Shown here: positions 457 through 16,627 of the stretch, piece by piece
Layout: the number at the start of each line of letters is the position of its first letter
Position numbering within the stretch: position 1 is the first letter of the stretch
Source: Hyphomicrobiales bacterium
GTDB lineage: Bacteria; Pseudomonadota; Alphaproteobacteria; MED-G09
Assembly (NCBI GenBank): GCA_028339975.1
Contig: JAOLDG010000008.1
Location: 2,154 to 66,153 of the forward strand
Direction: 5' to 3'
DNA: 64,000 nucleotides
The notes under the pieces: model-generated
The model's input: only the letters and a program-made list of their open reading frames with translations
Database searches by the model: none
What the model was told of the DNA's origin: nothing
Program-made: the position numbers and the translations under genes

Positions 457-462
457 GTTAAA

Positions 463-990: not shown

Positions 991-1011
991 AGGAGAACTA
1001 ATTTTAGGTTA

Positions 1012-2162: not shown

Positions 2163-2210
2163 TTTAATCCTCCGTATACATTAAGAATATATTATAAATA
2201 ACTGATTTAT

Positions 2211-3149: not shown

Positions 3150-3232
3150 TTAATTTCCCCAAAGTTATAAATATGTTTATATTTGAAACTATAATTTTAA
3201 ATATAACAACAATAAAAATAATAGAGGTTAAT

Positions 3233-4663
3233 ATGAGCATACAAGCAACTGCTGCCAAATTACTTTTTAAGCTTCCAAAGCCAATATTAAGTAAAATTAT
3301 GAAGTCAATTCCTAAAAGTAATAATCCTCATGATCTTGTTGAAAAGCCATGGCACTTAAAGGGTAACTGGGCTCCCGTTAAAGATGAAATTATTGTAGAA
3401 AATTTGGAAATCAAAGGAGAAATTCCAAAGGAAATTAATGGAATGTACTTGAGGAATGGAATGAATCCAGTTTCTGGTCACAGTGATCATTGGTTTTTTG
3501 GAAACGGAATGCTTCATGGAGTTAATATTAGTGATGGCAAGGCCTCTTATATGAACAAGTATGTAAGGACACCTTACTTTGATGAAGATATGGGAATGAT
3601 GGAGAGTTCTTTTGATCTAAAAGCATCTCCTGCCAACACCCATGTAATAAGACATGCGGGTAAGATTTTAACACTTGAAGAAGCTCATCTTCCTTGGATT
3701 GTAAATGAAAATTTGGATACCATAGATTCCTATGATTTTGATGGAAAACTTGATGGCCCAATGACAGCTCATCCTAGGGTATGCCCAGAGACTGGAGAGC
3801 TTTTATTTTTTGGTTACCAGATGATGAAGAAACCATACTTAACCTATCATAGGGTTTCAAGGGAAGGTGTATTGGTTCAGTCAGAAGAAATTGATATACC
3901 AAGACCTGTTATGATGCATGATTGGAATATAACAAGAAATTATGTTGTATTTATGGATTTACCATTAGTATTTGATATTAATGACGCCGTTAGCGGGTCT
4001 GATCCATTTGGGTTTAAACCTGAGTGTGGGGCCAGGTTAGGTGTTATGCCAAGAAATGGATCTAACTCAGATATTAAATGGATTGATATAAATCCATGTT
4101 TTGTTTTTCATCCAATGAATGCATATGAAGAAGATGATAAGATAATTCTTCACGTTTGCAGACAAAACAAAGCTATGGTTGGTGGTATGGATGAAATTTA
4201 TGGAGGAGAGGATTCCACTGGAAAACTATGGAAATGGACCATTGATTTAACTTCTGGAAAATGTTCTGAAGAGCAAATTGACGATAGGCCATGTGATTTT
4301 GCAAGAATTGATGACAGATTGGTAGGCCTTAAGGCTAAAAATGGATACGCAATGGCCTTGGATGAAAAAGCTGAGACCTTAACATTTGATCAATATTTAT
4401 ATAAATTTGACTTAGAAAATAATAAACGTATTGATCATGATTTAGGCAATAATGTTTTTGGGGGGGAGCCAATTTTTGTTCCTAAATTTGATAATTCTTC
4501 AGAAAATGATGGTTGGGTTATGGCAATTGTGTATGATGCAAATATTTCTAAATCAAAATTAATCATCGTTGATACTGAAAACTTTGATAAGAAGCCTATT
4601 AGTGAAATTATTTTACCTCAAAGAGTACCATTTGGAGCGCATGGCAGTTGGCTGTCTAATTAA
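3233..4663 (+). CDS. carotenoid cleavage oxygenase (RPE65 / apocarotenoid dioxygenase family)
   Basis: Carries the four-His-containing motifs of the family (HDWNITRNYVVFMDLP, FHPMNAYEE, FVFHP, GAHGSW). The start is chosen at the ATG at 3233, which is preceded by GAGGT; the track ORF begins earlier at 3173. Confidence 0.8.
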   Translation: MSIQATAAKLLFKLPKPILSKIMKSIPKSNNPHDLVEKPWHLKGNWAPVKDEIIVENLEIKGEIPKEINGMYLRNGMNPVSGHSDHWFFGNGMLHGVNISDGKASYMNKYVRTPYFDEDMGMMESSFDLKASPANTHVIRHAGKILTLEEAHLPWIVNENLDTIDSYDFDGKLDGPMTAHPRVCPETGELLFFGYQMMKKPYLTYHRVSREGVLVQSEEIDIPRPVMMHDWNITRNYVVFMDLPLVFDINDAVSGSDPFGFKPECGARLGVMPRNGSNSDIKWIDINPCFVFHPMNAYEEDDKIILHVCRQNKAMVGGMDEIYGGEDSTGKLWKWTIDLTSGKCSEEQIDDRPCDFARIDDRLVGLKAKNGYAMALDEKAETLTFDQYLYKFDLENNKRIDHDLGNNVFGGEPIFVPKFDNSSENDGWVMAIVYDANISKSKLIIVDTENFDKKPISEIILPQRVPFGAHGSWLSN

Positions 4664-4667
4664 ATAA

Positions 4668-4973
4668 ATGAAAGCATTGATTTATAAACCATCAAAATCT
4701 GTCACCCAGTCTGGAAGTAAAAAAACTGATAAATGGATTTTAGAGTTCTCCAGATCTTCAAGTCCTACGATTGATCCACTAATGAAATGGACATCCTCAA
4801 CAGATACACAGAATCAAGTCAAAATGAAATTTAGTTCAAAAGACCTTGCAGTTGCCTATGCTGAAAAAAATTCTATTGAGTACAGAGTTAAAGAACCAAA
4901 AAAATCTAAAACTCGACCTAAGTCATATTCAGATAATTTTTCTTATGATAAAAAGACACCTTGGACACACTAA
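4668..4973 (+). CDS. ETC complex I subunit conserved-region protein (NDUFS4-like)
   Basis: ~100 aa, with the LEF...PLMGWTSS.D...QV.L.F.....A..YAEKN..EY pattern of the alphaproteobacterial NDUFS4 homologue (pfam ETC_C1_NDUFA4). Confidence 0.7.
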   Translation: MKALIYKPSKSVTQSGSKKTDKWILEFSRSSSPTIDPLMKWTSSTDTQNQVKMKFSSKDLAVAYAEKNSIEYRVKEPKKSKTRPKSYSDNFSYDKKTPWTH

Positions 4974-4991
4974 CTTTATCGAGAATCTTAT

Positions 4992-5549
4992 ATGGATACT
5001 ATCAAAACATTACTTACAAGAAAATCATCTCCAAGGCTAGATGAACCGTCGCCATCACCAGAAGAGCTTGATTTAATCTTTCAATCTGCCTTAAGGGCTC
5101 CTGATCATGCCGCGCTAAAGCCATGGAAATTTATAAAAGTTTCTGGTGAGGGAAGGGGTAAGCTAGCAAAAGCTTCTCTAGAAGCTCTTAAAAAAATTAA
5201 TCCTAGTAAGGCCAATGAAAACGAAGAAAAAATTCTTAATGCCCCCTACAGAGCACCATTAATAATAATAGTTGTTGCATCAATTAAAGATCATCACATC
5301 GTTCCAGATATTGAGCAAATTCTATCGGCTGGCGCTGCAGCCCAAAATATATTAATTGCAGCCCATTCTATGGGTTATTCTGGTATTTGGAGAACAGGAC
5401 TTATATCTTTCAATAAAGAGATTTCAAGATCTTTTGATTTGGATGATAATGATGTTGTTATTGGTTATTTATATATAGGAACATCTGAAAAAGAAATGAC
5501 ATTACCGCCAAAATCTAATATTAATGATTTTGTTATAAACTGGGATTAG
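4992..5549 (+). CDS. nitroreductase family protein
   Basis: Has the RKS.R signature near the N-terminus, and its overall ~185 aa length matches the NAD(P)H nitroreductase fold. Confidence 0.7.
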   Translation: MDTIKTLLTRKSSPRLDEPSPSPEELDLIFQSALRAPDHAALKPWKFIKVSGEGRGKLAKASLEALKKINPSKANENEEKILNAPYRAPLIIIVVASIKDHHIVPDIEQILSAGAAAQNILIAAHSMGYSGIWRTGLISFNKEISRSFDLDDNDVVIGYLYIGTSEKEMTLPPKSNINDFVINWD

Positions 5550-5570
5550 TAAACTGTAAAAGAGGGTAAT

Positions 5571-5999
5571 ATGAAAGAAACAAACAAAGAAGATTTAGCT
5601 AAAATTCAAGAACTTTTCGATACATGGGACGCAGCTGTTGAATCTGGGGATAGAGATGGCTACGTAAGTGGTTTAGATGAGAATATTACCCTGATGCCTC
5701 CTGGTGGAGTTGTTATCAAAGGAAAAGAAAATTATAGAGAATTCTTGGGTCCAGTTTTTGAGTCAGCAACCTATAGGGTGGAGAACAATAGTCCTAAAAA
5801 AATTGAAATATTCGAAGACATTGCAATAATTCATTCACACCTTACTGTTTACTTAACTTTTTTAGAAGGAGCGTCATCCATAGCATCCGAAGGGGCAATT
5901 CAGAACAACGTTTCTGAAGGAAAATACCTTGATGTTCTTAGAAGGCAAGAGGATGGATCTTGGAAATGTTTAGTTCATACTTGGAAGCAGATCAGTTAA
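5571..5999 (+). CDS. SnoaL-like / DUF4440 (NTF2-fold) protein
   Basis: A 142-aa protein with the NTF2-like pattern (IQELFDTWDAAVESGDRDGY ... GSWK). Confidence 0.45.
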   Translation: MKETNKEDLAKIQELFDTWDAAVESGDRDGYVSGLDENITLMPPGGVVIKGKENYREFLGPVFESATYRVENNSPKKIEIFEDIAIIHSHLTVYLTFLEGASSIASEGAIQNNVSEGKYLDVLRRQEDGSWKCLVHTWKQIS

Positions 6000-6639
6000 T
6001 AAACTCTTTTTCTGGGTTTTCATATTTTATAAATATTGATTGCTGGTCGTGATCTTTCCAAGTCATCAAGACCTCTGTTTCATGCTCTAAATAAATCAAT
6101 TTGATTTTATTAAAAAAATTCCAAATAGAGTTTTGATATTCGTTTATTTTTTTTTCAATATCATTATCACTAAGACTAGGAAATTCTTTTTCTAAATCAA
6201 TTTTAAGATTCAATCTGTAATCCAAGTATTCATTTAATACCTGACTTGCCTCTATGCTATCTTTGCCAAAATCATTAATCATTTTATCATGTTTTTGTGA
6301 TAAAAAGACAAGACTTTCAACATATGACAAATACTTTTTAGGGTTTTTTTGTTTATATTTTTTAGCTTCTTTTAGTGAATTAAAATAAAGCTCAAGTATA
6401 TTTTTTGTAATAATATTCAATTTTAAATTATTTTTTAAATTTTCTGTGCAACTTTCTTTTAAATTTATTAGATCAGATAAATCATGTGTCCAATTGAAAA
6501 TCTTAAAGGCCTTTATAAAGCCTATAAAGAGAGCATCACTGTAAAATTTTGATAAATCGTTTACCATTAAAGCCTTTCTAATTTTAATTAATATAAATTT
6601 AATTGATGATATCAGTAAAGTATTTTCTTGATACCCCAT
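5992..6639 (-). CDS. hypothetical protein
   Basis: A 215-aa lysine-rich ORF with no recognisable motif. It is the last gene before the tRNA hotspot. Confidence 0.35.
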   Translation of the reverse strand: MGYQENTLLISSIKFILIKIRKALMVNDLSKFYSDALFIGFIKAFKIFNWTHDLSDLINLKESCTENLKNNLKLNIITKNILELYFNSLKEAKKYKQKNPKKYLSYVESLVFLSQKHDKMINDFGKDSIEASQVLNEYLDYRLNLKIDLEKEFPSLSDNDIEKKINEYQNSIWNFFNKIKLIYLEHETEVLMTWKDHDQQSIFIKYENPEKEFIN

Positions 6640-6767
6640 CAGTGAATTTTAAACAAGATATTGCATCTTACTCATTATTGATTTAACTAGTATTTTTCTC
6701 CTAGTTATTTGACTTAATTATTAAATTTATTGGTTTTTATGTTAAAGTTATTAGTAAGTGAATTTGT

Positions 6768-6844
6768 GGTCCCGTAGCTCAGCTGGATAGAGCAACGGAT
6801 TTCTAATCCGTAGGTCAGTAGTTCGAATCTACTCGGGATCACCA
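6768..6844 (+). tRNA. tRNA-Arg (anticodon TCT)
   Basis: The 77-nt cloverleaf can be read directly. The acceptor stem is GGTCCCG/CGGGATC, the D-arm is GCTC-AGCTGGATA-GAGC, the anticodon stem is ACGGA/TCCGT with loop TTTCTAA (anticodon TCT), and the T-arm is AGTAG-TTCGAAT-CTACT, with an encoded CCA. Confidence 0.85.
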
Positions 6845-6850
6845 TTTAAA
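6800..6850 (+). repeat. attL core: 3' 45 nt of tRNA-Arg plus TTTAAA, the 51-bp direct-repeat partner of 15114-15164
   Basis: The string TTTCTAATCCGTAGGTCAGTAGTTCGAATCTACTCGGGATCACCATTTAAA is identical at 6800-6850 and 15114-15164. Confidence 0.85.
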
Positions 6851-6898
6851 TTTCATTGTAATACAACAGTTATCCTTAGTAAATAGCCAAATAACCAT

Positions 6899-6928
6899 CT
6901 GTACGTACATTCATCTCTAACTGTACGT
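6899..6928 (+). promoter_or_regulatory. putative integrase arm-type binding sites (CTGTACGT x2, 22-bp spacing) at the attL arm
   Basis: CATCTGTACGT is at 6896-6906 and AACTGTACGTTT at 6919-6930. Their reverse complements (ACGTACAG x2) are at 14945-14972 at the other end of the element. Confidence 0.5.
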
Positions 6929-7045
6929 TTTTATACCTTGATATACATTTCAATACATTTATACTTATTATGTTGTATAAAACGTTGTACAAAAATAATA
7001 ATAAAGCTTATTTCGGACAGTTAATCCGAAATTTGAGCATACGAG

Positions 7046-9190
7046 GTGTTACTGGTGACGAAATATCTAAATGTTCCTAAGATTAAAGAAAAGGATTATT
7101 CTATTAAGTACAAAGATGAGCCAATTTTTGTAATAGAACAATTCAGCAAGCTATCATTACGAATAGGTAAATTTAAAATCGCCTATTATTACAGAGATAG
7201 AAAGCAATCAATTAAACTTGGTGAGCATCCTCATCTATCCTTATATGAGGCTCGTCAAAAAGCTCGTGAGATTGAAGGCGAAGTTTCAGTTCCAGAACAA
7301 TACAGGGATAAAAAAACCCTCTTAGAAGCAATTTATGGGAATCCAGAGCTTTACTGTCAAAACTCTTACCACTCAAATGAACATATAAGAGAGAGTGTAT
7401 TAGAAGGAAGCTATCTGGCTCAATATAAGGATAGGACAAATACATCCTCTTTTATTGATAAGAAAAACAAAATTCGCCTTCTTGCTGACCATTATGTTGA
7501 TATTAATAACAACTGCTCGATAACTATTGATAAGCTTGATGGCTTGGAAATAAAGAAAATTGCAGAGGATTATCATTTAATTGATGGTAAATCCGCATTA
7601 GCTTCAAAAAGATTATTTAATGAATGGAAAACTTTCTTCAAATGGTTATCAAAAAATGAAGGTATTTCAAATATTCTTGCTGACCAAGAAGTAAGCAAAG
7701 TTAAAGTTCGGGTTAAAAGGCGTGAATATAGAGATCCAAGATTTAAACCTGAGGAAGTAAACTCTTTAATTAATTCTTATGAACAAATGAATGAGCCTTA
7801 TAAATGGATACATCCGTTTATGATGTTTACAGGTAGAAGAATGGCATCTGTTTTACGATTAGAGAAAACTGATATTGATTTCGATAAGAATATTATCAAT
7901 TTTAGAGCTGATAATGAAAAAATGTCTATGAATAACTCAGACAGCATTCCACCTGCATATACTGAGATTCCTATGTGTAAATCCTTAGAATCTCTTGTTA
8001 AAGATAGAATACTTCCTTTTAAACCTGATAATAAGTTTCTATTCGCTCATCCAACTATTAAAGATATTCCCCTTAAGGTTAACGATAGGGAGATGCGAGA
8101 TAAAGTTAGAGAGGTAACAGGTATCAAAAACTTTACCTACAAAGATATAAGAACCAACGTTAATACAGCCATGATTAATCTGGGTATAGACCTTAGAATA
8201 AGGCAATTCATATTAGGACAGAAATCAGAGAAGGTTGAGAGTAGGGAGCTACAGCAACCCAGATCATTATCTGTAAATGAGATATTCTATGATAAAAACA
8301 CGCATCTTGAGGAAAAAAGAGAAGCACTTAACAAGATTGAAGGCCTTTGGATTAAATTTTCAGAACAAAATCATAAATTAGATGATAAAATTAGTGAAAT
8401 AACTGAGGATGATGAACTTTCTTTTATTCTTAAGAAAGACTCAGATTTAGAAATAATTAACGATTATCTGAAAAGTATAAAATCTAAGCCAATAACAAGT
8501 ATTAGCGAGTATTTAACTAAAAGAGATGGTCTACATCATGAAGCATCCGATTTCATGCATTGTGTTACACAATTCTTTTTGTACAAACAATACGTTGATT
8601 TTTTAAAGGCAAAAAAACATTTTACTAGCGGTGTTAAATTATACTTAAAAGCATTTATTTACAGACAGTTAAAAACTAATCCTAATTATCATGGTCGTGA
8701 TTATTTAAAGAACTGGAATAAATTGCAAAGCCTAGTTGCGGAATTACCCGCTTCTCATTGGAAAAATAAATACGATTATGAGAAATTAAAAATAGCTAGT
8801 CAAATTCACTATTATCAAGGTGAGTACAATAATTGGAAAATAAAGAAGGAAAAACCTGATTGGACAAAGATTAAAAATTACGATCCAAAAGAAGATGGAT
8901 CTAAAGGTGAGCTTAATGACATACTTTCAGGTAAAGATGGTTTAAATTCAGCGATAGAGCGGTTTAATAATACTTTTTTAAAAGACGGAAAAGATCCTTC
9001 TCCAGAAACATTAGGGCATAGTAAAAGAGTGTATTTGAAATATTATGAAAGTCTAAAAGCCCTAGATTCTATCGCTTTTGTGCAACTATATAACTACCAA
9101 CTTGTTGCTGATATACCAGATGAAAAATTTGAGAGAATGATATCTTCTTCGCAAAGAGATGCTGTTAAAGAAATGGCTAAAGAGTTATAA
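7046..9190 (+). CDS. int: tyrosine-type integrase/recombinase (P4-like N-terminal arm-binding domain) with a long C-terminal extension
   Basis: Starts at GTG. The N-terminal DUF4102-like arm-binding motif is GEHPHLSLYEARQKAREI. The catalytic region contains TGRRMASVLRLEKTDIDF (box I Arg), YKDIR (the HxxR box with His replaced by Lys), and LGQKSE...NEIFY (candidate Tyr). It lies directly next to the tRNA attL. Its 714 aa are about 300 aa longer than typical integrases. Confidence 0.75.
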   Translation: MLLVTKYLNVPKIKEKDYSIKYKDEPIFVIEQFSKLSLRIGKFKIAYYYRDRKQSIKLGEHPHLSLYEARQKAREIEGEVSVPEQYRDKKTLLEAIYGNPELYCQNSYHSNEHIRESVLEGSYLAQYKDRTNTSSFIDKKNKIRLLADHYVDINNNCSITIDKLDGLEIKKIAEDYHLIDGKSALASKRLFNEWKTFFKWLSKNEGISNILADQEVSKVKVRVKRREYRDPRFKPEEVNSLINSYEQMNEPYKWIHPFMMFTGRRMASVLRLEKTDIDFDKNIINFRADNEKMSMNNSDSIPPAYTEIPMCKSLESLVKDRILPFKPDNKFLFAHPTIKDIPLKVNDREMRDKVREVTGIKNFTYKDIRTNVNTAMINLGIDLRIRQFILGQKSEKVESRELQQPRSLSVNEIFYDKNTHLEEKREALNKIEGLWIKFSEQNHKLDDKISEITEDDELSFILKKDSDLEIINDYLKSIKSKPITSISEYLTKRDGLHHEASDFMHCVTQFFLYKQYVDFLKAKKHFTSGVKLYLKAFIYRQLKTNPNYHGRDYLKNWNKLQSLVAELPASHWKNKYDYEKLKIASQIHYYQGEYNNWKIKKEKPDWTKIKNYDPKEDGSKGELNDILSGKDGLNSAIERFNNTFLKDGKDPSPETLGHSKRVYLKYYESLKALDSIAFVQLYNYQLVADIPDEKFERMISSSQRDAVKEMAKEL

Positions 9191-9196
9191 CTTAAT

Positions 9197-9631
9197 ATGT
9201 CAGTTCCTTGTCCAAATCCAAAATGTGGAATACTTGAAGGCAGAAATTATGAAGGGGCTAACCCAATTCTCTTTTTTATTCCTTACATTGCTCCATGGCT
9301 CTGGTTTGATGCAATTATTCCTAGAGATAAAGATATTGCTCAAATTATTACCGAGTCAGACAGAGAGGATTGGGGTATCGACGATTGGGTTGAACTTGGT
9401 GTTTGCGATAGGTGTGGTTATAGACTTGGTGACCCACAACCATGGCAAAAGAATGTTAGAATTAAAAGATTTATTGTATGGATACTAATAATCCTTTTTT
9501 TCTCTTGGGCGACTATTTACTCACTGCTAGAGGATAGTGGTTATTTTTGGGTTAGTTTATTTTTCCTATTCTTTTCCTTAATCTATTTTCGTTCTAACGA
9601 AATTTACGAATTATCGGATGATGACGAATAG
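9197..9631 (+). CDS. hypothetical zinc-ribbon membrane protein
   Basis: Has CPNPKC...CDRC (a CxxC pair) followed by two predicted TM helices and an acidic tail. It begins 7 nt after the integrase stop. Confidence 0.4.
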   Translation: MSVPCPNPKCGILEGRNYEGANPILFFIPYIAPWLWFDAIIPRDKDIAQIITESDREDWGIDDWVELGVCDRCGYRLGDPQPWQKNVRIKRFIVWILIILFFSWATIYSLLEDSGYFWVSLFFLFFSLIYFRSNEIYELSDDDE

Positions 9632-9636
9632 GTTAT

Positions 9637-9790
9637 GTGTAGCCGAGACAAACACGCTCTTGGTCGATAAGGGGATGAAGAGGTACAGAAGATAACCTAG
9701 GAAAACCCTATCAGAGCAAAACTCGACTACACAACGCTATCTGGGAAACAGGGTGAAAAAGATAATCCCCATAACCCAGACGCAAGCTAT
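9637..9790 (+). ncRNA. candidate structured RNA or recombination/packaging element (GC-rich intergenic region)
   Basis: There is no ORF here, and the local GC is ~48% against a ~29% background. A long-range helix pairs GTGTAGCCGAG (9637-9647) with CTCGACTACAC (9722-9732), 10 of 11 bp, and encloses nested hairpins (CTCTT/AAGAG and GATAACCTAGG...CCCTATC). A second helix pairs CTGGG with CCCAG at 9741-9778. Confidence 0.3.
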
Positions 9791-9826
9791 TTGCCTTTTG
9801 AGGCTTTCTTTTTAGCTACATATAAC
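9785..9826 (+). terminator. possible intrinsic terminator downstream of the int-orf operon
   Basis: Hairpin AGCTA-TTT-GCCT-TTTG-AGGC followed by a TTTCTTTTT run and closed by TAGCT. The stem is short, so the call is weak. Confidence 0.3.
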
Positions 9827-9944
9827 TCAGCCTTTCCTAAATTTATTAGGAATTGACCTTCGTTATCTTCAACATCAAGAACTTCATTAGCGGAAACAAT
9901 ATTCCCACTAACTATGATTGTATTTAATATTCTAACTTTCATGA

Positions 9945-11711
9945 TTACGTCGTTACAATATCGTTGATTGCTGAGAAGCCTTGAATGTGTCGAATACCAA
10001 CATCTACAAATCCAAAGATAGTCACTATCACATCACCTCGTGTTGAGAATGTGTAAGGGTCGACTATAAGTTCTGGAGCACCAAACTCACCAATAATAAC
10101 ATTACTCCAATCACCAAAGATGAGAGCTGATAGATTAGCACCAGTTCCTTTCGTTAGAGTGTTTGGAACGTTCTGGGATTGTAAATATCTATATCCTAGA
10201 AGCTCGTCACGATTGTTAGAGATGTATGTCGCATCAGTACCAGCCGGATTTCTCAATGTTGTTCTAAGTTTATTAGCAACCTGAGAGTTCGTGACAAATG
10301 TACCTCGACCAGTTAACAGGCCGTTAGCTGTATCAACGTTGGCAATCATAGTAGAGATATTATCATAAGTGATAGCACCACCATTTGCACCAGATGAAAC
10401 AAGAGATAGACCAGTAGTATTTAGAATACCTGTTGGTTGAACTCCACCAGTTCCATTAATAACGGCTTTATCTATCGCTTCTGATACGCCCATCATTAAA
10501 TCATTCCTCATTAAGTTTTCTAGAGGAGGTAACATCTGGGTTAGAGCTTGTCTGGTATAAGACACTCTAGATGATATTCCATTAGGACTTAGTGTGAGCT
10601 GGTCAAAAGTAGGTGTTGATTCAGTCGCTGGACTTCCTTCAGCTACCCATTCACCAGCAGACGCTAATGTCTTTCTTGGAATTGCTACGTTCTGATTCAG
10701 TCCAGCCATAGTGGTTGCACCAGCATCAATAGAAACATTGAAAGGTCTTAAAACATCAATGAAGGATTGAGGCATATACTCTGTACCAACTAGATTTGAA
10801 GTATTAGTTGTATCGAGTAGAGTTCTTTGTCCAAAAGCTGATGGTGGAACAAATGCACCAGTCGTTGTTCTATTTTGGCGAGTTGCTATTTCTTGAGACA
10901 TTTCTCTCTCAAAACCAGCATTAGACCAATCTGAATTTAACTGAGCTGATATCACTTTGCCTATTGAGTATTCTCTTTTAGACATTGCTTGGTCTTGTTC
11001 AAAGCTAGTGTAAGCAGAAGCAATAGGCTCTGTCTTAACTCTATCTAGTAATTTTGAACGGAACTCATCAAGAGGCATATCTTTCATTGCACAATCTGTA
11101 GCAAATTCGATTTGTCTGTGATGCTTTCCTAGGGCTAGTATTTCTTTAGAAGCTCTTTCATTGGATGCTTCTTTTATTTTAGTTTCGATTTTATTTTCCA
11201 TAATGGATTCCTTTGGTTTTGGATATGATCTTTGAATACCAATACTGTGATCTGCCGGTACTCCAACAACTGACACCTCGTAAGGTTGCCATGATGTAAC
11301 GAGTTGATTGCGACCAACTTCTTTGACTTCATCGATTGAATATCCGATTGATAGAAAGCGTAAGACCTTTGACTTGATGTCATTCCAAACTTCGGTTGCT
11401 CTGGTACTTTGTCCAAGTCTCAGAGTTCCTCTTAGTTTTTTATCCTCAGATATTCTAACGTTCTCAACTGTCCCAATGGGATCTTGTTGATCATGTCCGA
11501 ATAGAAGGGGTAAGCCTATATCCGCTCTTTCCATGTTTATTGCTGATGGTTCATGAACCAGTATCTCGTTATATTCACCACGAGGAACTGGTAACTCAGA
11601 AGAAAGACTGGCTTCAATAGTCCGGTTTTCTCCAGCACGTTCATCTAACTCAATGAGCAGAGTCCTGTGGTTTAAGTCATCACGAGCATCAGACACATTT
11701 TCATGAGTCAT
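9945..11711 (-). CDS. fused prohead protease (S78/U35, HK97 gp4-like) and HK97-fold major capsid protein
   Basis: The N-terminal ~170 aa carry LPLLFGHDQQDPIG and SIGYSIDE, matching the prohead-protease His/Ser regions. A coiled-coil linker follows, then a C-terminal MCP-like region (...IFGDWSNVIIGEFGAPELIVDPYTFSTRGDVIV...). An AGGAAA SD lies 8 nt upstream of the ATG. GC is ~43-45%, well above the surrounding ~29%. Confidence 0.75.
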   Translation of the reverse strand: MTHENVSDARDDLNHRTLLIELDERAGENRTIEASLSSELPVPRGEYNEILVHEPSAINMERADIGLPLLFGHDQQDPIGTVENVRISEDKKLRGTLRLGQSTRATEVWNDIKSKVLRFLSIGYSIDEVKEVGRNQLVTSWQPYEVSVVGVPADHSIGIQRSYPKPKESIMENKIETKIKEASNERASKEILALGKHHRQIEFATDCAMKDMPLDEFRSKLLDRVKTEPIASAYTSFEQDQAMSKREYSIGKVISAQLNSDWSNAGFEREMSQEIATRQNRTTTGAFVPPSAFGQRTLLDTTNTSNLVGTEYMPQSFIDVLRPFNVSIDAGATTMAGLNQNVAIPRKTLASAGEWVAEGSPATESTPTFDQLTLSPNGISSRVSYTRQALTQMLPPLENLMRNDLMMGVSEAIDKAVINGTGGVQPTGILNTTGLSLVSSGANGGAITYDNISTMIANVDTANGLLTGRGTFVTNSQVANKLRTTLRNPAGTDATYISNNRDELLGYRYLQSQNVPNTLTKGTGANLSALIFGDWSNVIIGEFGAPELIVDPYTFSTRGDVIVTIFGFVDVGIRHIQGFSAINDIVTT

Positions 11712-11967
11712 ACTTCGTTTCCTAATATGTTAAGTGAATTCCTCGACCAGAGGATTTGCCTGAGTCTACCCTGACTCATCTTACTCTTATATAAAACTTA
11801 ATCTCTAGAACCGAGTAAGAGTTCTATTAAGTTGAAAAGGTTTTGCTCTTAACATTCCATGTATTGAATCTCCGCTACCAGCAGAAAACAAACAAACCTG
11901 ATAGATTTAATATGGGATGATTTGCATTCTTATTCAAGTGAAGTAATCTAATTTTAAACGAAATGGG

Positions 11968-12219
11968 ATGGAGATGATTATGGGTATATTTTTGGTTATT
12001 TTTTATATTGTAGTTGGCATAATGTTTTTTTCGGCTTGGGTGGGTTTGTTTATAATAAATAACTCCATACAAAGCCTACTTAGTTATGTAAGAATTCAAA
12101 ATGTCCTTTTGAAAAATATTGTTAATAAAGATAGAACACCATCTCAAGAGAATTATTTTTTAAATCAGCAAGCAGAAAACGATGATTCTTTTTATAAGGG
12201 CGTTACACCAATAGAGTGA
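11968..12219 (+). CDS. small hypothetical membrane protein (cargo)
   Basis: An 83-aa ORF with two hydrophobic helices and no homology that I recognise. Confidence 0.3.
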   Translation: MEMIMGIFLVIFYIVVGIMFFSAWVGLFIINNSIQSLLSYVRIQNVLLKNIVNKDRTPSQENYFLNQQAENDDSFYKGVTPIE

Positions 12220-12232
12220 TTAGGAAAAGGTA

Positions 12233-12655
12233 ATGAATAAAATACTTATAGCGTTAGTCATGGCAGTTGTGATGTGTGGAAATGTTTATGCTTGGACAGA
12301 GAGAGGTGAGCAGATTGATGAAGGGTTATATATTTCTCATTATTTCGATGAGCAGAATATTAGGCATCAGGGTAAATATCTCTGGTATTGGACTTTAATG
12401 AACATACATCGTGATGATAAACAAATTTATGGAAAAGGTGTAAAAAGTTGGCTTAATTATTGGAGAATAGATTGCAATCAGAGGACTAATGCAGTTTTTA
12501 AACTTGTTAAATATTCAAAGTTAGGTGGGCAAGGCAGAGTTCTTGAATCAGAAGATTATGAAGGCGGAGCTAATGCACAAGGCACTCCAAATACTTTTTC
12601 ATATATTATTCCAAATTCTCAAGGCGATTTCATAGCACAGTCTTATTGTAAGTAA
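12233..12655 (+). CDS. hypothetical secreted protein (cargo)
   Basis: Has an N-terminal signal peptide (MNKILIALVMAVVMCGNVYA) and is 140 aa. It sits inside the element, separated from the small membrane ORF by 13 nt. Confidence 0.4.
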   Translation: MNKILIALVMAVVMCGNVYAWTERGEQIDEGLYISHYFDEQNIRHQGKYLWYWTLMNIHRDDKQIYGKGVKSWLNYWRIDCNQRTNAVFKLVKYSKLGGQGRVLESEDYEGGANAQGTPNTFSYIIPNSQGDFIAQSYCK

Positions 12656-12901
12656 ATTAAAGGGTATATCGAAACTATCTTTAGATGACTTCATTTAAGG
12701 GTATTTCTCGTTGAGGCCTTCTGCTAGGCACAGAGAATCCTCAATGCGTTTCGTTTAATAGCATATTCAAACTAAAAAATACCGCTTGTATGGTCTTTAA
12801 ATAGGTTGACGAAGTGCTTCTAAGTGTCTGTTACTAGGAGACTATCGTGATATACAGTGCCCACAGTGTGCAAAGGCTCAGAAGAACCTCGAACATACCC
12901 C

Positions 12902-13375
12902 TTAGTTAAGTTTTAATGGGTCTAAAAAACCTTCAGGATTATCTTTTACATTTGTACGACTAGCAACAATAATATCGGCATAATGCTCTCTATCTTCTCT
13001 ATCTTGAAAGATAGTCTCTACTTTATGCCAATCCCTGTCACTTACCTTGCATTCATATGGATACAATATAGACCATCCCATATTCATAACCCAATCAGCT
13101 TCTTTCTTTGTACTTTTAAATATCTTATGATCTGCCTCTTTTGAATCTATTTTCCATCCAAAATAACAGGCTACACTTACTGCTTTTTTTTGCATACACC
13201 ACAAGTCATATAGATTAGCTATACTCATCTCTGTTGGCCCTGTTCCAATAACGCTATTGATGGATATTTTTACATCTAACATACTCATCTGTTTTTTTTC
13301 TGAGTCACTGAAACCTCTAAAGTGTTCGTTTTCCAAAGCTTTTGAAAGGTTAAAAAATACATATTGTGGATCCAT
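12902..13375 (-). CDS. hypothetical protein (element-borne)
   Basis: A 157-aa ORF with no recognised motif. It has the same orientation as the replication/excision module. Confidence 0.35.
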   Translation of the reverse strand: MDPQYVFFNLSKALENEHFRGFSDSEKKQMSMLDVKISINSVIGTGPTEMSIANLYDLWCMQKKAVSVACYFGWKIDSKEADHKIFKSTKKEADWVMNMGWSILYPYECKVSDRDWHKVETIFQDREDREHYADIIVASRTNVKDNPEGFLDPLKLN

Positions 13376-13464
13376 TTTAATCTCCTGTTGTTGTTTTTAA
13401 ATTCTGTAAATTAAGTAGACAGACACTACTATTGCTAACCAAATTAGAATGAGGATTAACTCAA

Positions 13465-14283
13465 TCAATTTGCTATGCTCTTAAAAAGGTTGGTTGTTGT
13501 TTGTAAGTCTCGGTTATTATCGTGCCAATGCTGACCAATCTCATCGATTTCAAAGTCACTAAGATGACCCTTCCAAATATCATATCGCATTATGACATCA
13601 CCAGAATTATGCTTTTCTAGTTCCTTCCAGAATTCATTGAACTTATTTTCAGTAAAGGTCTTAGTCTTAGGCTTATCTGGATTTTCACCCCCATCAAGGG
13701 GAGGGTGAAAAGACTGATTAACTTCAGCATTAGTGTCTAATATATCTCTAGTTTCTTTTTTTTTATTCTTTTCTTCTCTTTTCTTATGCTTAAGTCCAAC
13801 TAACTCACTTTCCTTGTTTTCTGGGAAATTATCATCATCGCTATGTATAGGTTTGTCAGAGACTTGCTCAGAGTTTGTGGTCGACTTGTTGTCCTTTAGT
13901 AACTCATTGTATTGATCTAGTCGCTCTTTCGCCATTTCTCGTTTGGCTGTTGCACCTTTCTTGCCTTTTTCAACATTAGTGAGATGCTTTGCCATAGTTT
14001 CATAATATAGTTTTTCTCCGAATTCAAAGTAATATCCTTTATTGGGAACTTTCCTAAAGAATGGCTTTATAACTTCACATACTGCTTGATATTGTCTTGG
14101 ATCTAACTTGGTTCTATATAGAAACCAACTTTTATCATCCAAATTAACGGCCTTATATTCTTGCATCCATTGTGCATCTAATATGTCTCTTAAAGCTCCT
14201 CGCTCTATACCCTTAAGATGTCCAGTCATGTAATGAAATTCTGCTACCGGAAACGGCATCGTATGAAGTGTAATAGTAGACAT
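13465..14283 (-). CDS. DUF1376 (YdaU-like) prophage replication-associated protein
   Basis: The N-terminal FHYMTGHLKGIERGALRDILDAQW fits the DUF1376 signature (HL...E.GAYRRLLD). It is followed by a low-complexity lysine/glutamate-rich region. Confidence 0.55.
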   Translation of the reverse strand: MSTITLHTMPFPVAEFHYMTGHLKGIERGALRDILDAQWMQEYKAVNLDDKSWFLYRTKLDPRQYQAVCEVIKPFFRKVPNKGYYFEFGEKLYYETMAKHLTNVEKGKKGATAKREMAKERLDQYNELLKDNKSTTNSEQVSDKPIHSDDDNFPENKESELVGLKHKKREEKNKKKETRDILDTNAEVNQSFHPPLDGGENPDKPKTKTFTENKFNEFWKELEKHNSGDVIMRYDIWKGHLSDFEIDEIGQHWHDNNRDLQTTTNLFKSIAN

Positions 14284-14675
14284 TAGTTCTTAACCTTCTC
14301 GGCAACTGTCTGGGCTTGCGAACAAAACCTCATGCCTTTGTAGAGAAATGGTAAAAGATTGATCACAGGTCTACCCAAGTCGAACTGCTCTAATAAATCT
14401 TCCCTTTCATGGAAATAATGAAGTCTCCATCCATTACTTGATAACTCAAGAGCCATATAAGAGCTTATGCCTTTCTGGTAGTTCTCATGAATCATATCTA
14501 GGTTATCTAAATTAGCTATAACTTGAGCTGATAGATTGCTTGCATCTTGGACTTGCATACCAAAGCTCTCAAAGGTCGGAACTAGCTCACTCATCCAGAA
14601 ATTAACAATATTGATAGTTTCCTGAGGAAGATCATTAAAATCATCTGATTTAAGCATTAGACTTAATCCATGCAT
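14283..14675 (-). CDS. hypothetical protein, translationally coupled to the DUF1376 gene
   Basis: The track ORF extends to 14783, but that N-terminus overlaps the AlpA gene in another frame. An internal Met at 14675 or 14657 is the more likely start. The stop overlaps the start of the DUF1376 gene. Confidence 0.3.
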   Translation of the reverse strand: MHGLSLMLKSDDFNDLPQETINIVNFWMSELVPTFESFGMQVQDASNLSAQVIANLDNLDMIHENYQKGISSYMALELSSNGWRLHYFHEREDLLEQFDLGRPVINLLPFLYKGMRFCSQAQTVAEKVKN

Positions 14676-14880
14676 TAACTTCGCTTTCACGATACATAGC
14701 TTTGCACTTGTTATTAGGTCTCTTACTTTTTGGAAACAAACCTTCGCTTTCCCATCTCTGGATAGTTGCTGATGATTTACCAACTAAAGTCGCTACCTCA
14801 GTTCTTGATAGTAGGCGATTTTTAGTCTGACTAAGTTTTTCTAGTATTTTGTAAATTTCTGTTTCTAATTGTTTGTCCAT
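14650..14880 (-). CDS. AlpA-family phage transcriptional regulator / excisionase (HTH)
   Basis: A 76-aa protein with LLSRTEVATLVGKSSATIQRWESEGLFPKS...YRESEVNAWI, matching the AlpA/Xis-type HTH. It is the first gene inward from attR. Confidence 0.65.
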   Translation of the reverse strand: MDKQLETEIYKILEKLSQTKNRLLSRTEVATLVGKSSATIQRWESEGLFPKSKRPNNKCKAMYRESEVNAWIKSNA

Positions 14881-14944
14881 GAAGACCTCCTTTAAATGTA
14901 TAAGAAGTCTAACTCCATGATAGTGACGTTTAACATCAAATTTG

Positions 14945-14972
14945 ACGTACAGATGAAGCTAAAAACGTACAG
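14945..14972 (+). promoter_or_regulatory. putative integrase arm-type sites at the attR arm (ACGTACAG x2)
   Basis: ACGTACAG occurs at 14945-14952 and 14965-14972, the reverse complement of the CTGTACGT pair at 6899-6928. The extended matches are CATCTGTACGT and AACTGTACGTTT. Confidence 0.5.
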
Positions 14973-15113
14973 TTTAACTTTGATATTGAAGTTACTTTGA
15001 GCGTAATGTATTACTTTAAACTACAAGTTATAGGGATTAGGTGTTGTACAGAACGATGTACAAAAATCGAGAAAGATAAGCAATTACTTACGTTTGACTA
15101 TGGTGTTTTATGG

Positions 15114-15164
15114 TTTCTAATCCGTAGGTCAGTAGTTCGAATCTACTCGGGATCACCATTTAAA
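15114..15164 (+). repeat. attR core: 51-bp direct repeat of the tRNA-Arg 3' end
   Basis: Identical to 6800-6850. The identity breaks immediately outside on both sides. Confidence 0.85.
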
Positions 15165-15243
15165 AATAGCCATAAACCAATATCCACCTTAACTTCTTTT
15201 CAAAAACTATAATGAAGTGATATTTATGTTGTTTTGACTAATT

Positions 15244-15900
15244 TTAAAGTAGGGACCAACCATAGAAAATGGATATAAAAATTGTATAAATAGCCAGAAG
15301 AATAACGTTGACAGGGTTTCCAGATAGTTTTGGTGTTTTTATTTGAGAAACATTTAATATTGCAAGACATATTCCGCTGGCACCAAGAAAAAATGAAAAA
15401 AATGTATCTTCAAAGCGCTCTGCAAACATAAATAAAAAAACTAGAATAATACTATTGTTATCAATGGCTAGGCCAGTGTATTTTGCATCGCTTGATAATC
15501 CAAAGGTGCTAAAATAACTTAATCTAATAGCACCAAAAACTAGCATTATGAATGCAGGAATTAAAAAGAGCGGATTAAAATTCGAATAACTTAATATCAA
15601 AATAGCGGGGGTGACTCCATAACTTACAATATCTATTAGTAGATCAAGTTGGCCTCCAAATTTTTGATCGTCACCTGTTCTTCCCTTTATTTTACGAGCA
15701 ATAAGGCCATCAGCCCAATCAAAGGCAACTGCCCAAATCATTCCTATCATTGCGGCTTCATATATACCTATTATCAGGAAGTATATTGCAAGTAGTGAGC
15801 AGCCTAAGCCTGCAAGAGAGCATATATTGGGAATATCTCCAATGTAAGACAGGATAGATTTTGTTGGAAACTTTGTTGATATTGATCTTTTAGTTGTCAT
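15244..15900 (-). CDS. CDP-alcohol phosphatidyltransferase family protein
   Basis: Has the D(x2)DG(x2)AR...G(x3)D(x3)D signature (DWADGLIARKIKGRTGDDQKFGGQLDLLIDIVSYG) and is a multi-pass membrane protein. Confidence 0.75.
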   Translation of the reverse strand: MTTKRSISTKFPTKSILSYIGDIPNICSLAGLGCSLLAIYFLIIGIYEAAMIGMIWAVAFDWADGLIARKIKGRTGDDQKFGGQLDLLIDIVSYGVTPAILILSYSNFNPLFLIPAFIMLVFGAIRLSYFSTFGLSSDAKYTGLAIDNNSIILVFLFMFAERFEDTFFSFFLGASGICLAILNVSQIKTPKLSGNPVNVILLAIYTIFISIFYGWSLL

Positions 15901-15993
15901 AGCAAGTAATTTAACCTAATATGTAAAAGCATAATTTTATGTTAGATTTCTAACACTTTGCTATCATCATTTATGAGGTAGTAAAAGGAAAAA

Positions 15994-16500
15994 TTGAAAA
16001 TAGTTGTATACACTGTCGGTACCTTTGATTTACTTCATGTTGGTCATCTTGCTTTATTGAACCATTGCAAAACACTTGGAGACATCCTCGCGGTTGGGGT
16101 TGCTTCAGATGAAGTTGTTAATATGTACAAACCTAATGTTCCTATTGTTCCCTTAGAACAACGTATGGAGATGTTGCGAGCGCTTGGGTGCGTCGATATA
16201 GTTCGCCCATATCATGAACTTGAGTATATTTCAGGTTGCAAAGCCTTAAATGTTGATATTTTTGTTGTAGGTGAGGATTGGGGAAAGAAATCACATAACC
16301 TTGATGTTGATAACTATATTAGAGATATTGGTAAGAAAATTGAACAGGTTCACTATAATCCAAGAACTTCATCAACTAAAATAAAACAAATGGTTTTATC
16401 TCAGAATCAACTTCAAACCAAAATAAATGAGCAGAAATTACAAAGGTTTTCTGTATATAAAAAGAGTCCGAGCTATCCTTTTGCAAAACAAACTAAATAA
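15994..16500 (+). CDS. cytidylyltransferase (TagD-like glycerol-3-phosphate / phospho-alcohol cytidylyltransferase)
   Basis: Has the HxGH motif GTFDLLHVGH, plus FVVGEDWGKK and NPRTSSTKIK, matching the TagD-family pattern (FVMGDDWEGKF ... PRTEGISTTKIK). Confidence 0.7.
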   Translation: MKIVVYTVGTFDLLHVGHLALLNHCKTLGDILAVGVASDEVVNMYKPNVPIVPLEQRMEMLRALGCVDIVRPYHELEYISGCKALNVDIFVVGEDWGKKSHNLDVDNYIRDIGKKIEQVHYNPRTSSTKIKQMVLSQNQLQTKINEQKLQRFSVYKKSPSYPFAKQTK

Positions 16501-16583
16501 TTTATATTCAATGTTATGATATATCCGCACAAGAGTTTCCCTCAAGCATGTAACTAGAAATTGCTTACGCTATAAAAATTAAA

Positions 16584-16627
16584 TCAGTAGATTAGAAGTT
16601 CAAATCTTCTCGGGATCACCATTTAAA
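16584..16627 (+). repeat. degenerate relic copy of the tRNA-Arg 3' end (old att site)
   Basis: TCAGTAG...AGAAGTTCAAATCTTCTCGGGATCACCATTTAAA aligns to the tRNA T-arm and acceptor (AGTAGTTCGAATCTACTCGGGATCACCATTTAAA). There are 3 substitutions, two of them compensatory in the T-stem (AGAAG/CTTCT). The tRNA 5' half is absent. Confidence 0.55.

Follow-up and report, generated by a model that had tools for sequence, protein, structure and literature searches.

A putative helper-dependent, capsid-only phage satellite integrated in tRNA-Arg(TCT) of an unclassified alphaproteobacterium

Small elements with a major capsid protein (MCP) gene have already been reported, namely PICI-like tycheposons and 'twilight-zone' HK97 mini-genomes, and they have been little studied. 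The former are described as having "either a terS or MCP" (Hackl et al., bioRxiv 10.1101/2020.12.28.424599; Cell 2023), and tycheposon-related elements have been reported in Alphaproteobacteria (Hackl et al., bioRxiv 10.1101/2020.12.28.424599). The 'twilight-zone' mini-genomes are gut genomes of 8.9 kb within a class of 5-11.6 kb (Aguilar et al., bioRxiv 10.1101/2025.06.18.659913). VEIMEs, which are reported to be integrated in Alphaproteobacteria, have no major capsid gene (Eppley et al. 2022, PMC9618062), and for both VEIMEs and PICMIs packaging is reported to occur as concatemers inside native capsids of the helper (PMC9618062; Barcia-Cruz et al. 2024, PMC10803314). Marine and gut metagenomes have yielded MCP-only satellites, and for none of these has the mechanism been explained. 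In the literature searched, we know of no experimental demonstration that an MCP-only satellite works on a foreign portal. The element described here is a well-documented example of an MCP carrier, and its gene content suggests that it is probably a site-specific integrative phage satellite of the capsid-only type, which depends on a helper.

The mobile unit, bracketed by two 51-nt repeats, comprises 8,314 bp (about 8.3 kb) of a 64-kb window, which is the whole stretch of DNA that was analysed. Its features are compiled in Table 1. The gene order given in a preliminary description, from the integrase through the AlpA-type gene next to attR, was reproduced by the ORF list together with Pfam and PHROGs, and the perfect direct repeat of the tRNA 3' end was recovered to the exact nucleotide.

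Table 1. Features of the element and its insertion site (positions within the window)
Feature	Position	Strand	Evidence or remark
tRNA-Arg(TCT), intact, integration target	6768..6844	+	ARAGORN; Rfam RF00005, 70.2 bits
attL core, first base of anticodon loop to tRNA 3' end plus TTTAAA	6800..6850	+	perfect 51-nt direct repeat with 15114-15164
Left (P') arm	6851..7045	.	candidate arm-type integrase sites CTGTACGT at 6899 and 6921; 26-nt repeat 6971-6996
Tyrosine integrase, 714 aa	7046..9190	+	PF00589 7.8e-10; PF13356 3.9e-5; phrog_1 2.4e-20
144-aa protein, CxxC...CxxC, two C-terminal TM helices	9197..9631	+	travels with integrase
Structured, relatively GC-rich intergenic region between convergent operons	9632..9786	.	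MFE versus shuffles
51-aa ORF of capsid cassette, directly downstream of MCP	9787..9942	-	kept in L103, L188, L189
Fused prohead protease/scaffold/HK97 MCP, 588 aa	9945..11711	-	PF04586 and PF05065; phrog_617 5e-111; NCBIfam fusion model, TIGR01554
TM protein, 83 aa, variable cargo slot	11968..12219	+	ORF list; no family
Adhesin_E family secreted or lipoprotein, 140 aa, cargo	12233..12655	+	PF16747 4.6e-12
157-aa protein, function unknown, last gene of AlpA-Rep operon	12902..13375	-	ORF list; no family
YdaU/DUF1376 protein, 272 aa	13465..14283	-	PF07120; phrog_4118, phrog_9327 'primosomal protein'; NCBI 'YdaU family protein'
About 124-aa protein, function unknown	14283..14657	-	homolog, 93% identical in DNA, after AlpA-like gene in L188
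AlpA/HTH_17 excisionase-regulator, 76 aa	14650..14880	-	PF12728 3.4e-7; PF05930 2.6e-5; phrog_66 9.5e-10
Right (P) arm	14881..15113	.	CTGTACGT, minus strand, at 14945 and 14965; 26-nt repeat 15042-15067
attR core, partial copy of tRNA 3' half	15114..15164	+	100% identical to 6800-6850

For the 24-nt core within the repeat, the chance expectation is 0 matches. The motif CTGTACGT is present in four copies in the 64 kb (0.29 expected), exclusively in the two arms of the element and in inverted orientation. As read from these junctions, the element was inserted by tyrosine-integrase recombination at the anticodon loop of tRNA-Arg(TCT), and the tRNA was regenerated with the element's own copy of the 3' half. 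The recombination apparatus is intact in sequence, as both the integrase and an AlpA-type excisionase are encoded and each arm retains its arm-type sites; perfect att repeats and empty sites complete the own site-specific recombination system that characterizes a phage satellite. A third, degenerate att copy (16577-16627, 80% identity) was overlooked in the preliminary description, and the last 44 nt of the right arm persist as a scar in strains without the element, e.g., in L101. Such debris, which tRNA sites gather, would fit a decaying prophage remnant, i.e., a complete siphophage that shed its portal, terminase and tails and of which capsid and integrase survive by chance. This explanation is strongly disfavoured, and the perfect repeats and intact arm sites are the first of several observations against it.

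Three contigs of the same species (L101, L103, L190) have empty sites, in which the tRNA is followed by the post-attR flank without the 8.3 kb, so that the near-identical strains lacking the insert that had been anticipated were indeed found. The flanks of L101 and L103 are 98.6% identical, the three empty-site contigs about 98.5%, and L190, a 281-kb NCBI MAG contig, encodes an identical BipA. From this distribution it can be read that the element is mobile and is carried by only some strains of the species, and a presence/absence polymorphism among such similar strains also argues against a decaying prophage. Judged by BipA, the host is an unclassified alphaproteobacterium whose nearest relatives are SAR116-type MAGs: the identity is 76% to SAR116/Puniceispirillum-type MAGs versus 62% to Pelagibacteraceae, and the host is not SAR11-like, contrary to the earlier suggestion. 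The NCBI label of the MAG is 'Hyphomicrobiales bacterium'.

The capsid gene encodes an S78 protease (about residues 28-160), a scaffold-like linker (about 161-310) and an HK97-fold MCP (about 310-588). The fusion of prohead protease and HK97 MCP had been recognized before, and Pfam, PHROGs and NCBIfam all place its domains in the HK97/S78 families. In the protease part, H73 and S121 are invariant, and MCPs of at least 90% identity are found on more than 10 contigs. The dN/dS value of the MCP is 0.11 versus L010, and the comparison with L103 revealed 0 nonsynonymous and about 16 synonymous changes. This substitution pattern indicates purifying selection on the capsid gene, which is at odds with survival by chance in a prophage remnant. 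The 51-aa ORF has a weak match to the gene after the MCP in phage CRP-406 (E = 2.5e-4, small database). Genuine phages employ the same fused gene type as capsid gene, and among solved structures the R4C T=7 capsid is the nearest. While a prophage remnant would explain the homology to MCPs of complete phages, in an NJ tree (without support values) all seven island-context MCPs form one clade that includes 0 portal-linked members. The capsid gene of the element therefore seems to belong to a clade of portal-less, island-borne genes, apart from the phage capsid genes adjacent to portal and terminase. Neither this separate clade, which reaches down to about 39% identity, nor the finding that compact units of this layout (7.4-8.7 kb) recur in combination with varying integrases and replication genes is expected for a remnant.

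A fused protease-scaffold-MCP is in principle enough for shell assembly (HK97 gp4/gp5 co-expression). This favours the idea that the element is an autonomous 'mini' HK97 virus without portal and tail, or an encapsulin-like compartment, and that the shell encloses element DNA or protein cargo without a helper. Size, gene classes and the missing portal, terminase and tail resemble the 8.9-kb gut mini-genomes as well. We nevertheless regard this idea as very improbable. No encapsulin (Linocin_M18) domain was found in the MCP, for which Pfam at E <= 0.01 yielded only Phage_capsid and Peptidase_S78 and NCBIfam only HK97 MCP/protease models, and no cargo-type partner was found with Pfam and NCBIfam. 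Furthermore, the MCP groups with genuine tailed-phage MCPs, relatives have head-tail joining genes, and no mechanism is known by which dsDNA would enter without portal and terminase.

Portal, terminase and tail genes were found nowhere in the 64-kb window with Pfam, PHROGs, NCBIfam and tblastn probes, and connectors, TerS and HNH were not detected with these tools either. Portal and TerL of CRP-406 served as tblastn probes, with phage contigs as positive control. About 70 of 80 IMG/VR contigs with 31-38%-identical MCPs were positive, with the portal, and usually TerL, directly upstream, whereas the probes yielded nothing either in the window or at the 16 loci whose MCPs are at least 39% identical. 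The earlier statement that these genes are missing is thereby corroborated. As is typical for satellites, the virion module is incomplete and its homologs of morphogenesis genes are limited to the protease-MCP and the 51-aa ORF. A complete or recently defective prophage was rejected, because the att-bounded unit contains no terminase, portal or tail gene and its flanks are cellular genes. The earlier preference for a satellite over a complete prophage agrees with the absence of these genes, the selected capsid gene, the empty sites and the island-borne MCP clade. Because a capsid-shell gene is present without packaging or tail genes, the element most likely borrows packaging and tails from a helper phage; we infer this dependence, and the helper phage itself, from the gene content.

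Excised forms had been expected, and attP junctions were indeed found for two sibling elements with the same architecture. The contigs L001/L002 are attP junctions of a sibling from the Tara <0.22 µm virome, the integrated form of which is L003, and L188 is the attP form of a sibling integrated in L103. For this exact element the expectation did not hold, i.e., no excised, circular or packaged copy was found, and a search of IMG/VR revealed no close relatives of the MCP, integrase or YdaU gene. The existence of sibling attP forms also disfavours a prophage remnant. The virome attP contig could derive from vesicles or free circles instead of capsids.

On other contigs this integrase module is associated with non-viral cargo, i.e., an RTX-like protein in L105 and Czc efflux in L106, and thereby resembles cargo tycheposons, which are reportedly enriched in vesicles. 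This would suit the explanation that the capsid gene serves mainly in anti-phage interference, as a dominant-negative protein or decoy that poisons related phages, and that the island spreads by vesicles or other routes. The strong purifying selection proves a function, not which one, and a packaging-specificity gene or site (TerS, HNH, pac, cos) was not recognisable in the element with Pfam, PHROGs and NCBIfam. The defence explanation fits the same anatomy and overlaps partly with the satellite explanation. Nevertheless, we consider it unlikely: PADLOC matches nothing among the element proteins except the AlpA-like HTH protein, and a simple decoy would not need the conserved protease and scaffold with their invariant catalytic residues. 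The small gene after the MCP is kept, the relative L013 adds a gpZ-like head-tail gene, and the sibling attP contig stems from a virome of the <0.22 µm fraction.

The integrase has an arm-binding N-terminus and a catalytic domain (about residues 190-400), followed by a C-terminal extension of some 300 residues that is uncharacterised; the N-terminal part has a dN/dS of 0.095, the extension one of 0.34. Only four homologs were detected, none of them named, and a 99%-identical integrase is present at the same tRNA in another sample. A 72%-identical copy of the 144-aa protein adjoins the 99%-identical integrase in L105. This protein had been called a small Zn-ribbon protein; the CxxC...CxxC pattern is present and is the basis of the call, while Pfam, PHROGs and NCBIfam gave no family match. 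The GC-rich structured non-coding region noted earlier is confirmed by its folding (MFE z = -3.8 on the plus and -4.8 on the minus strand versus shuffles); it has no Rfam match, is probably a bidirectional terminator, and forms the edge of the module that the element has in common with L103/L188. A 91%-identical copy of the Adhesin_E cargo protein adjoins a 61%-identical MCP in L004. The proposed DUF1376 replication-associated gene is named YdaU family by NCBI, but its PF07120 score of 28.0 bits is just below the Pfam threshold of 30.1; together with the PHROG 'primosomal protein' matches (4.5e-7) this makes it a weakly assigned candidate for a replication initiator or primosome-loading protein, and a replication origin was not found. 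The mechanical ORF of the following gene runs to 14783 and overlaps AlpA, so that the true start of the roughly 124-aa protein is probably near 14657.

If the element is a helper-dependent satellite, its cycle would begin when a helper siphophage with the same fused capsid gene type, such as a relative of the CRP-406/R4C-like roseophages, infects or is induced. AlpA and integrase would then excise the element and the YdaU/DUF1376 module would replicate it. Its capsid protein would build, or co-assemble into, procapsids on the helper portal, and helper terminase and tails would finish the particles, which might carry monomers in smaller shells or concatemers in full-size shells. The yield of the helper would probably be lowered. 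The satellite reading demands that the portal of another phage accept a foreign capsid protein. More tentatively, and with rather less confidence, the capsid-only islands may constitute an old, monophyletic and unnamed satellite family, in which the fused gene builds procapsids that are specific to the satellite and perhaps smaller, using a stolen portal, and siblings with integrases of about 700 aa use opposite halves of the tRNA. Two relatives could then share one tRNA gene without competition for att sites.

The locus offers an unusually complete natural history, with exact att sites, empty alleles, mosaic siblings, attP forms and an MCP phylogeny that splits satellite and phage lineages. 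A shell of its own, built on a borrowed portal, would add to the ways in which satellites are known to exploit phages, and a capsid-only family would represent a third capsid strategy, beside remodelling of helper capsids (P4, SaPI, PLE) and encoding of a full head (cf-PICI). Such a shell would also bear on the question of the 'missing small tailed-phage capsids' and would provide streamlined marine Alphaproteobacteria with a further route of transduction. Although the host is uncultured, the 588-aa gene is directly testable by heterologous expression.

The element shares with cf-PICIs the integrative lifestyle, an own HK97-type MCP with prohead protease and the supply of missing virion parts by a helper, which is presumed here. 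However, cf-PICIs have a packaging module of about nine genes including portal, head-tail connectors, TerS and HNH and need only tails, whereas this element, with only the fused protease-MCP and the 51-aa ORF, would also need the portal and terminase of its helper. Capsid-forming PICIs, with which it had been compared initially, were therefore rejected as its class, since portal, connectors, TerS and HNH are absent. A P4-like satellite was likewise rejected, as Psu/Sid/Delta and the alpha primase-helicase had no matches in Pfam, PHROGs and NCBIfam. VEIMEs and PICMIs are, like this element, small (5-11 kb) marine integrative elements with integrase, AlpA and replication genes (a candidate one here); assignment to the VEIMEs was rejected because the element encodes an MCP. 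The Roseobacter phages CRP-406 and R4C as well as VP882 and phiHAP-1 have the same fused gene type (29-33% identity over 95-99% of the protein), but such siphophages are complete (29-44 kb): their MCP is immediately preceded by TerS, TerL and portal, and tail genes follow it.

The 'twilight-zone' mini-genomes match the element in size (about 8-9 kb; here 8,314 bp) and gene content, i.e., MCP and scaffold, an integrase, in some cases an excisionase, and replication genes (putative here), and neither has terminase, portal or tail genes. Their clade stems from the human gut and has MCPs enriched in encapsulin-type domains, which are lacking in the MCP of this element, a protein with an S78 protease; they are defined as DTR contigs, while this element was observed in its integrated form. 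An autonomous or encapsulin-related nature is preferred by their authors, whereas the present evidence favours a satellite. The PICI-like tycheposons are also small and marine. They adjoin a full-length tRNA, part of which is repeated at their distal end; an inward-facing tyrosine integrase marks one terminus and a small replication module (putative here) the other, and a single packaging-type phage gene (MCP or terS) is present without other virion genes. Both have same-integrase siblings with ecological cargo, and repeated integrations create tRNA islands, as the third att copy exemplifies here. In comparison with the published description of tycheposons, to which the likeness refers, the element differs by the long C-terminal extension of its integrase of about 700 aa and by YdaU/DUF1376 in place of a primase or helicase; its MCP is a protease-scaffold-MCP fusion, a trait on which that description is silent for tycheposon MCPs. 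With regard to the tRNA site with its distal partial copy, the gene map and the lone MCP, the tycheposon comparison drawn in the preliminary description agrees with the published layout.

The boundaries of the element are precise. The tRNA-Arg(TCT) gene is the only tRNA gene of the window (ARAGORN and Rfam), Rfam matched nothing else within the element even at E <= 1, and the perfect 51-nt direct repeat of the preliminary description was recovered base for base by a repeat search. It starts at the first anticodon-loop base (TTTCTAA, 6800-6806) and ends with the tRNA 3' end plus TTTAAA; its 24-nt core had a chance expectation of zero in shuffled sequences, and the size of the unit is 8,314 bp. 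The motif CTGTACGT is present four times in the window versus 0.29 times expected. Two of the copies are direct and lie in the left arm, the other two are inverted and lie in the right arm, and a 26-nt repeat is common to both arms. As read from the sequence, arm-type sites for an integrase with an arm-binding domain are expected to be arranged in this way, and the arrangement makes the recombination apparatus look intact and the insertion recent.

Alleles lacking the element, which the preliminary description proposed to look for, exist in three contigs of the same species. Five contigs were obtained when metagenomes were scanned with the complete tRNA sequence followed by TTTAAA. One of them, L101, is 98.6% identical to positions 1-6850 of the window and continues directly with the post-attR sequence, and L103 likewise has an element-less junction, on the right-hand side. 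The third, L190, spans 281 kb and belongs to a different NCBI MAG, whose BipA is identical; it contains neither the element nor a scar. Past the SnoaL-like gene, L101 and L103 carry 44 nt identical to the right end of the element and then a degenerate att copy, which is the scar of an earlier occupancy. Three alleles were therefore seen, i.e., SnoaL with the scar (L101, L103), SnoaL without it (L190), and neither (the window). The element is a recently inserted, strain-variable integrative island with an intact recombination module. An exact search of IMG/VR for its predicted attP junction gave no match. The repeat search also uncovered a third att copy, 80% identical, that the preliminary description had missed. 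It bounds a 1.4-kb two-gene lipid cassette, which is retained in all strains seen (L103, L190) and looks like a fixed remnant of an older integration; SDR-anchored contigs end at this third copy.

NCBI MAGs under the label "Hyphomicrobiales bacterium" contain the MCP, BipA and YdaU proteins of the window. Among GTDB species representatives, the identity of BipA does not exceed 76%; the best matches are SAR116/Puniceispirillum-type and unclassified alphaproteobacterial MAGs, in contrast to about 62% for Pelagibacteraceae. The earlier assignment to a SAR11-like genome thus has to be given up; the host is a streamlined marine alphaproteobacterium. The left flank is syntenic with a 1.48-Mb contig of a relative. 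The BipA-anchored loci of GTDB species representatives showed no synteny and hence gave no empty-site information, and a search for proteins identical to the product of the ORF to the left of the tRNA was without a match.

The gene content is compiled in the table. The DUF1376 match is slightly below the Pfam threshold, and the NCBI name of the protein is "YdaU family". The mechanically called ORF at 14283-14783 begins with a TTG at 14783 and thereby shares 134 nt with the AlpA gene; its true start is probably near 14657, as is suggested by the homolog in the sibling contig L188, which has 119 aa. The 155 nt between the convergent operons fold far more stably than shuffled sequences (z = -3.8 and -4.8), match no Rfam family and are not conserved in the related loci L010 and L001. 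They are probably a bidirectional terminator but could, alternatively, be a packaging or recombination signal. They coincide exactly with the start of the module common to L103/L188, and in L010 another hairpin, with a similar GUGUAGUCG stem motif, lies just past the MCP stop codon.

Features of the element, its flanks and related loci (positions refer to the window unless a contig or locus is named)
Feature	Position	Strand	Remarks
Left flank			RPE65, nitroreductase, DUF4440
tRNA-Arg(TCT)	6768-6844
51-nt att repeat	6800-6850; 15114-15164
Tyrosine integrase, 714 aa	7046-9190	+	arm-binding domain, catalytic domain, ~300-residue extension matching nothing
Integrase extension	8246-9190	+	residues about 400-714
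CxxC...CxxC/TM protein, 144 aa		+
Structured region	9632-9786
Protease-MCP, 588 aa		-	Peptidase_S78 + Phage_capsid; phrog_617 5e-111; NCBIfam "prohead protease/major capsid protein fusion"
51-aa ORF		-	after protease-MCP
Cargo slot		+	83-aa TM protein, 140-aa Adhesin_E-family protein
~60-nt conserved stretch	12226-12291; L105:9017-9082; L106:12932-12990; L188:3050-3109		starts of different cargo genes
Operon, in transcription order		-	AlpA (76 aa), ~124-aa ORF, YdaU/DUF1376 (272 aa), 157-aa ORF
Lipid cassette	15165-16627		bounded by third att copy
CDP-alcohol phosphatidyltransferase	15244-15900	-
Cytidylyltransferase	15994-16500	+
Third att copy	16577-16627
Right flank			CDP-alcohol phosphatidyltransferase, cytidylyltransferase, SDR, flavodoxin, PEMT, BipA
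SnoaL-like gene, 176 aa	L101:9437-10111; L103:7509-8183		after tRNA in element-less strains
L190, gene order			RPE65, nitroreductase, DUF4440, tRNA, post-attR flank, SnoaL-like gene, CDP-OH transferase
L103 sibling	L103:8261-11998		also small TM protein, same 51-aa ORF, MCP region of 97.8% DNA identity
L103 integrase, 725 aa	L103:8482-10659		26% identical; adjoins tRNA and diverges from it
L188 sibling (L188:1-8742), order			integrase, 5' 40 nt of tRNA-Arg, AlpA-like gene, homolog of ~124-aa ORF
L001 integrase	L001:2915-5038
L001 tRNA 5' half in attP, to anticodon loop	L001:5170-5215
L105 island	L105:114-9959		99%-identical integrase, at tRNA-Arg
L106 island	L106:9708-22097		62%-identical integrase, same tRNA
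L013 island	L013:6116-13242		integrase, D5_N primase, protease-MCP, Minor_tail_Z (gpZ-like) gene

The domain assignments are unambiguous, and the domain and family matches bear out the earlier reading of the capsid gene as an HK97-family capsid and protease. The full-length homologs, 29-33% identical, serve as capsid genes in genuine siphophages (CRP roseophages, VP882, phiHAP-1, S-LBS1), in which the gene order is TerS, TerL, portal, MCP, tail. Among solved structures, the T=7 capsid of roseophage R4C is the nearest. The gene is under strong constraint, with a dN/dS of 0.11 versus L010 (80% aa identity), about 16 synonymous and no nonsynonymous changes in 223 codons versus L103, and protease residues H73 and S121 invariant across 15 relatives. 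By these measures of selection, the MCP is a maintained single-gene procapsid module. A scaffold-linker of 155 versus 168 aa was considered as a sign of a small capsid and was discarded, because the difference is modest and confounded by phylogeny.

The flanks consist of ordinary cellular genes. Portal and TerL of the complete roseophage CRP-406, used as tblastn probes, had no match in the 64-kb window, in agreement with the preliminary description, which had found neither portal nor terminase. This negative result is meaningful, because in about 70 of 80 IMG/VR contigs these probes did find a portal, located immediately upstream of the MCP, with TerL usually beyond. P4-type genes are also absent from the element. 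Portal and TerL were likewise missing from all 16 loci with an MCP at least 39% identical to that of the window. In most of these loci an integrase gene is only a few kb away, and the integrases (about 700, 380, 325 and 420 aa) and replication genes (YdaU, HTH_36/DnaD-like, D5 primase) vary. In a neighbor-joining tree of 141 sequences, calculated without support values, seven island-context MCPs form one clade devoid of portal-linked members, and this pattern agrees with the identity ranking. By homology, the element belongs to this portal-less MCP lineage, and the single clade together with the ranking favours an old capsid-only island lineage over recurrent prophage decay. That the element is mere prophage debris is thus very improbable. 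The island in L013, an unrelated bacterial genome, indicates that the capsid-only lineage reaches other hosts, sometimes with an added head-tail joining gene. Single-sequence MCP scans of reference genomes and IMG/VR, and IMG/VR scans with the integrase and the YdaU protein, gave no match.

L103 contains a mirror-image element that lies 5' of the tRNA-Arg gene, and L188 (8,742 bp) is this sibling in attP configuration; its tRNA piece comprises exactly the 5' 40 nt and stops in the anticodon loop, and a full tRNA is not present. A more distant sibling is located at tRNA-Thr(TGT) (MCP 61% identical, integrase 707 aa). L003 equals L001/L002 over the integrase and the 5' half of the tRNA; past the anticodon loop, L003 continues with the rest of the tRNA (integrated form) and L001/L002 with AlpA-like and HTH_36/DnaD-like replication genes (attP form). 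L001/L002 stem from run ERR599377 (PRJEB4419) of the Tara Oceans <0.22 µm viromes. Therefore, judging from contig structure, elements of this family excise and are present in the virus-size fraction. A role in defence or as a decoy, with transfer by a non-capsid route, is plausible, though we consider it unlikely; PADLOC found no defence system on the element, and only the AlpA-like HTH matched "mad1".

Of tRNA-Arg, the window element takes the 3' half and the L103/L188 sibling the 5' half; both cross over in the anticodon loop, the only stretch (6800-6807) common to their identity blocks. Since the siblings at Arg-TCT and Thr-TGT carry the tRNA 5' half and sit 5' of the gene, they must supply the tRNA promoter. 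To our knowledge, attP sites nearly always hold the 3' part of a tRNA, and a 5'-half polarity is unusual. Three divergent integrases of the family have about 700-725 aa, around twice the usual size, and no Pfam, NCBIfam or PHROG family matched their C-terminal extensions. The extension of the window integrase is under weaker, still purifying selection (dN/dS 0.34); such extensions are shared only in part between lineages, and homologs are too few for a useful alignment. The family is most unusual in these large integrases and in the mirror-image way in which sibling elements use both halves of one tRNA.

Modules recur in islands with different cargo. The integrase and CxxC/TM pair (6765-9639) has a 96.7% identical copy in L105, where a 1,925-aa RTX-like (HemolysinCabind) protein replaces the capsid cassette, and the integrase of L106 adjoins a CzcCBA-type RND and CDF metal-efflux block; no capsid gene is found within the stretches seen of these two loci. 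A 91%-identical copy of the Adhesin_E-like gene adjoins a 61%-identical MCP. About 60 nt, including the RBS and the signal peptide encoded by the first ~20 codons of this gene, are 88% identical across relatives and may represent a leader common to these genes or a joint at which cargo is swapped by recombination.

Taken as a whole, the finding is real and well supported. In the mechanism we propose, portal, terminase and tails would come from a helper siphophage, the element's own MCP would build the capsid or co-assemble, and the element would probably interfere with the helper. Capsid-forming PICIs encode the whole head-packaging module, about 9 genes, in contrast to the fused protease-MCP and 51-aa ORF only of the window element, and VEIMEs are explicitly devoid of MCP genes (PMC9618062), while the window element has one. 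The archaeal Charybdis elements, which lack an HK97 gene, are unrelated. A literature search retrieved no description of satellites with only a fused protease-MCP or of their mechanism. "Twilight-zone" HK97 gut genomes of about 8.9 kb encode an integrase, an excisionase and replication proteins and lack portal, terminase and tail genes (bioRxiv 10.1101/2025.06.18.659913). However, their MCPs are encapsulin-like and that of the window is not; an autonomous portal-less particle or encapsulin is a quite unlikely explanation, if slightly less so than prophage debris. In the PICI-like tycheposons the integrase faces inward, a small replication module is optional and the tRNA repeats are partial, and related elements occur in Alphaproteobacteria (bioRxiv 10.1101/2020.12.28.424599). 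In view of these and the "twilight-zone" precedents, the element does not constitute a new category. Tycheposons are closest in architecture, a likeness distinct from membership, which rests on integrase and hallmark profiles, and the recurrence of modules with different cargo together with the third att copy is the pattern described for tycheposon islands.
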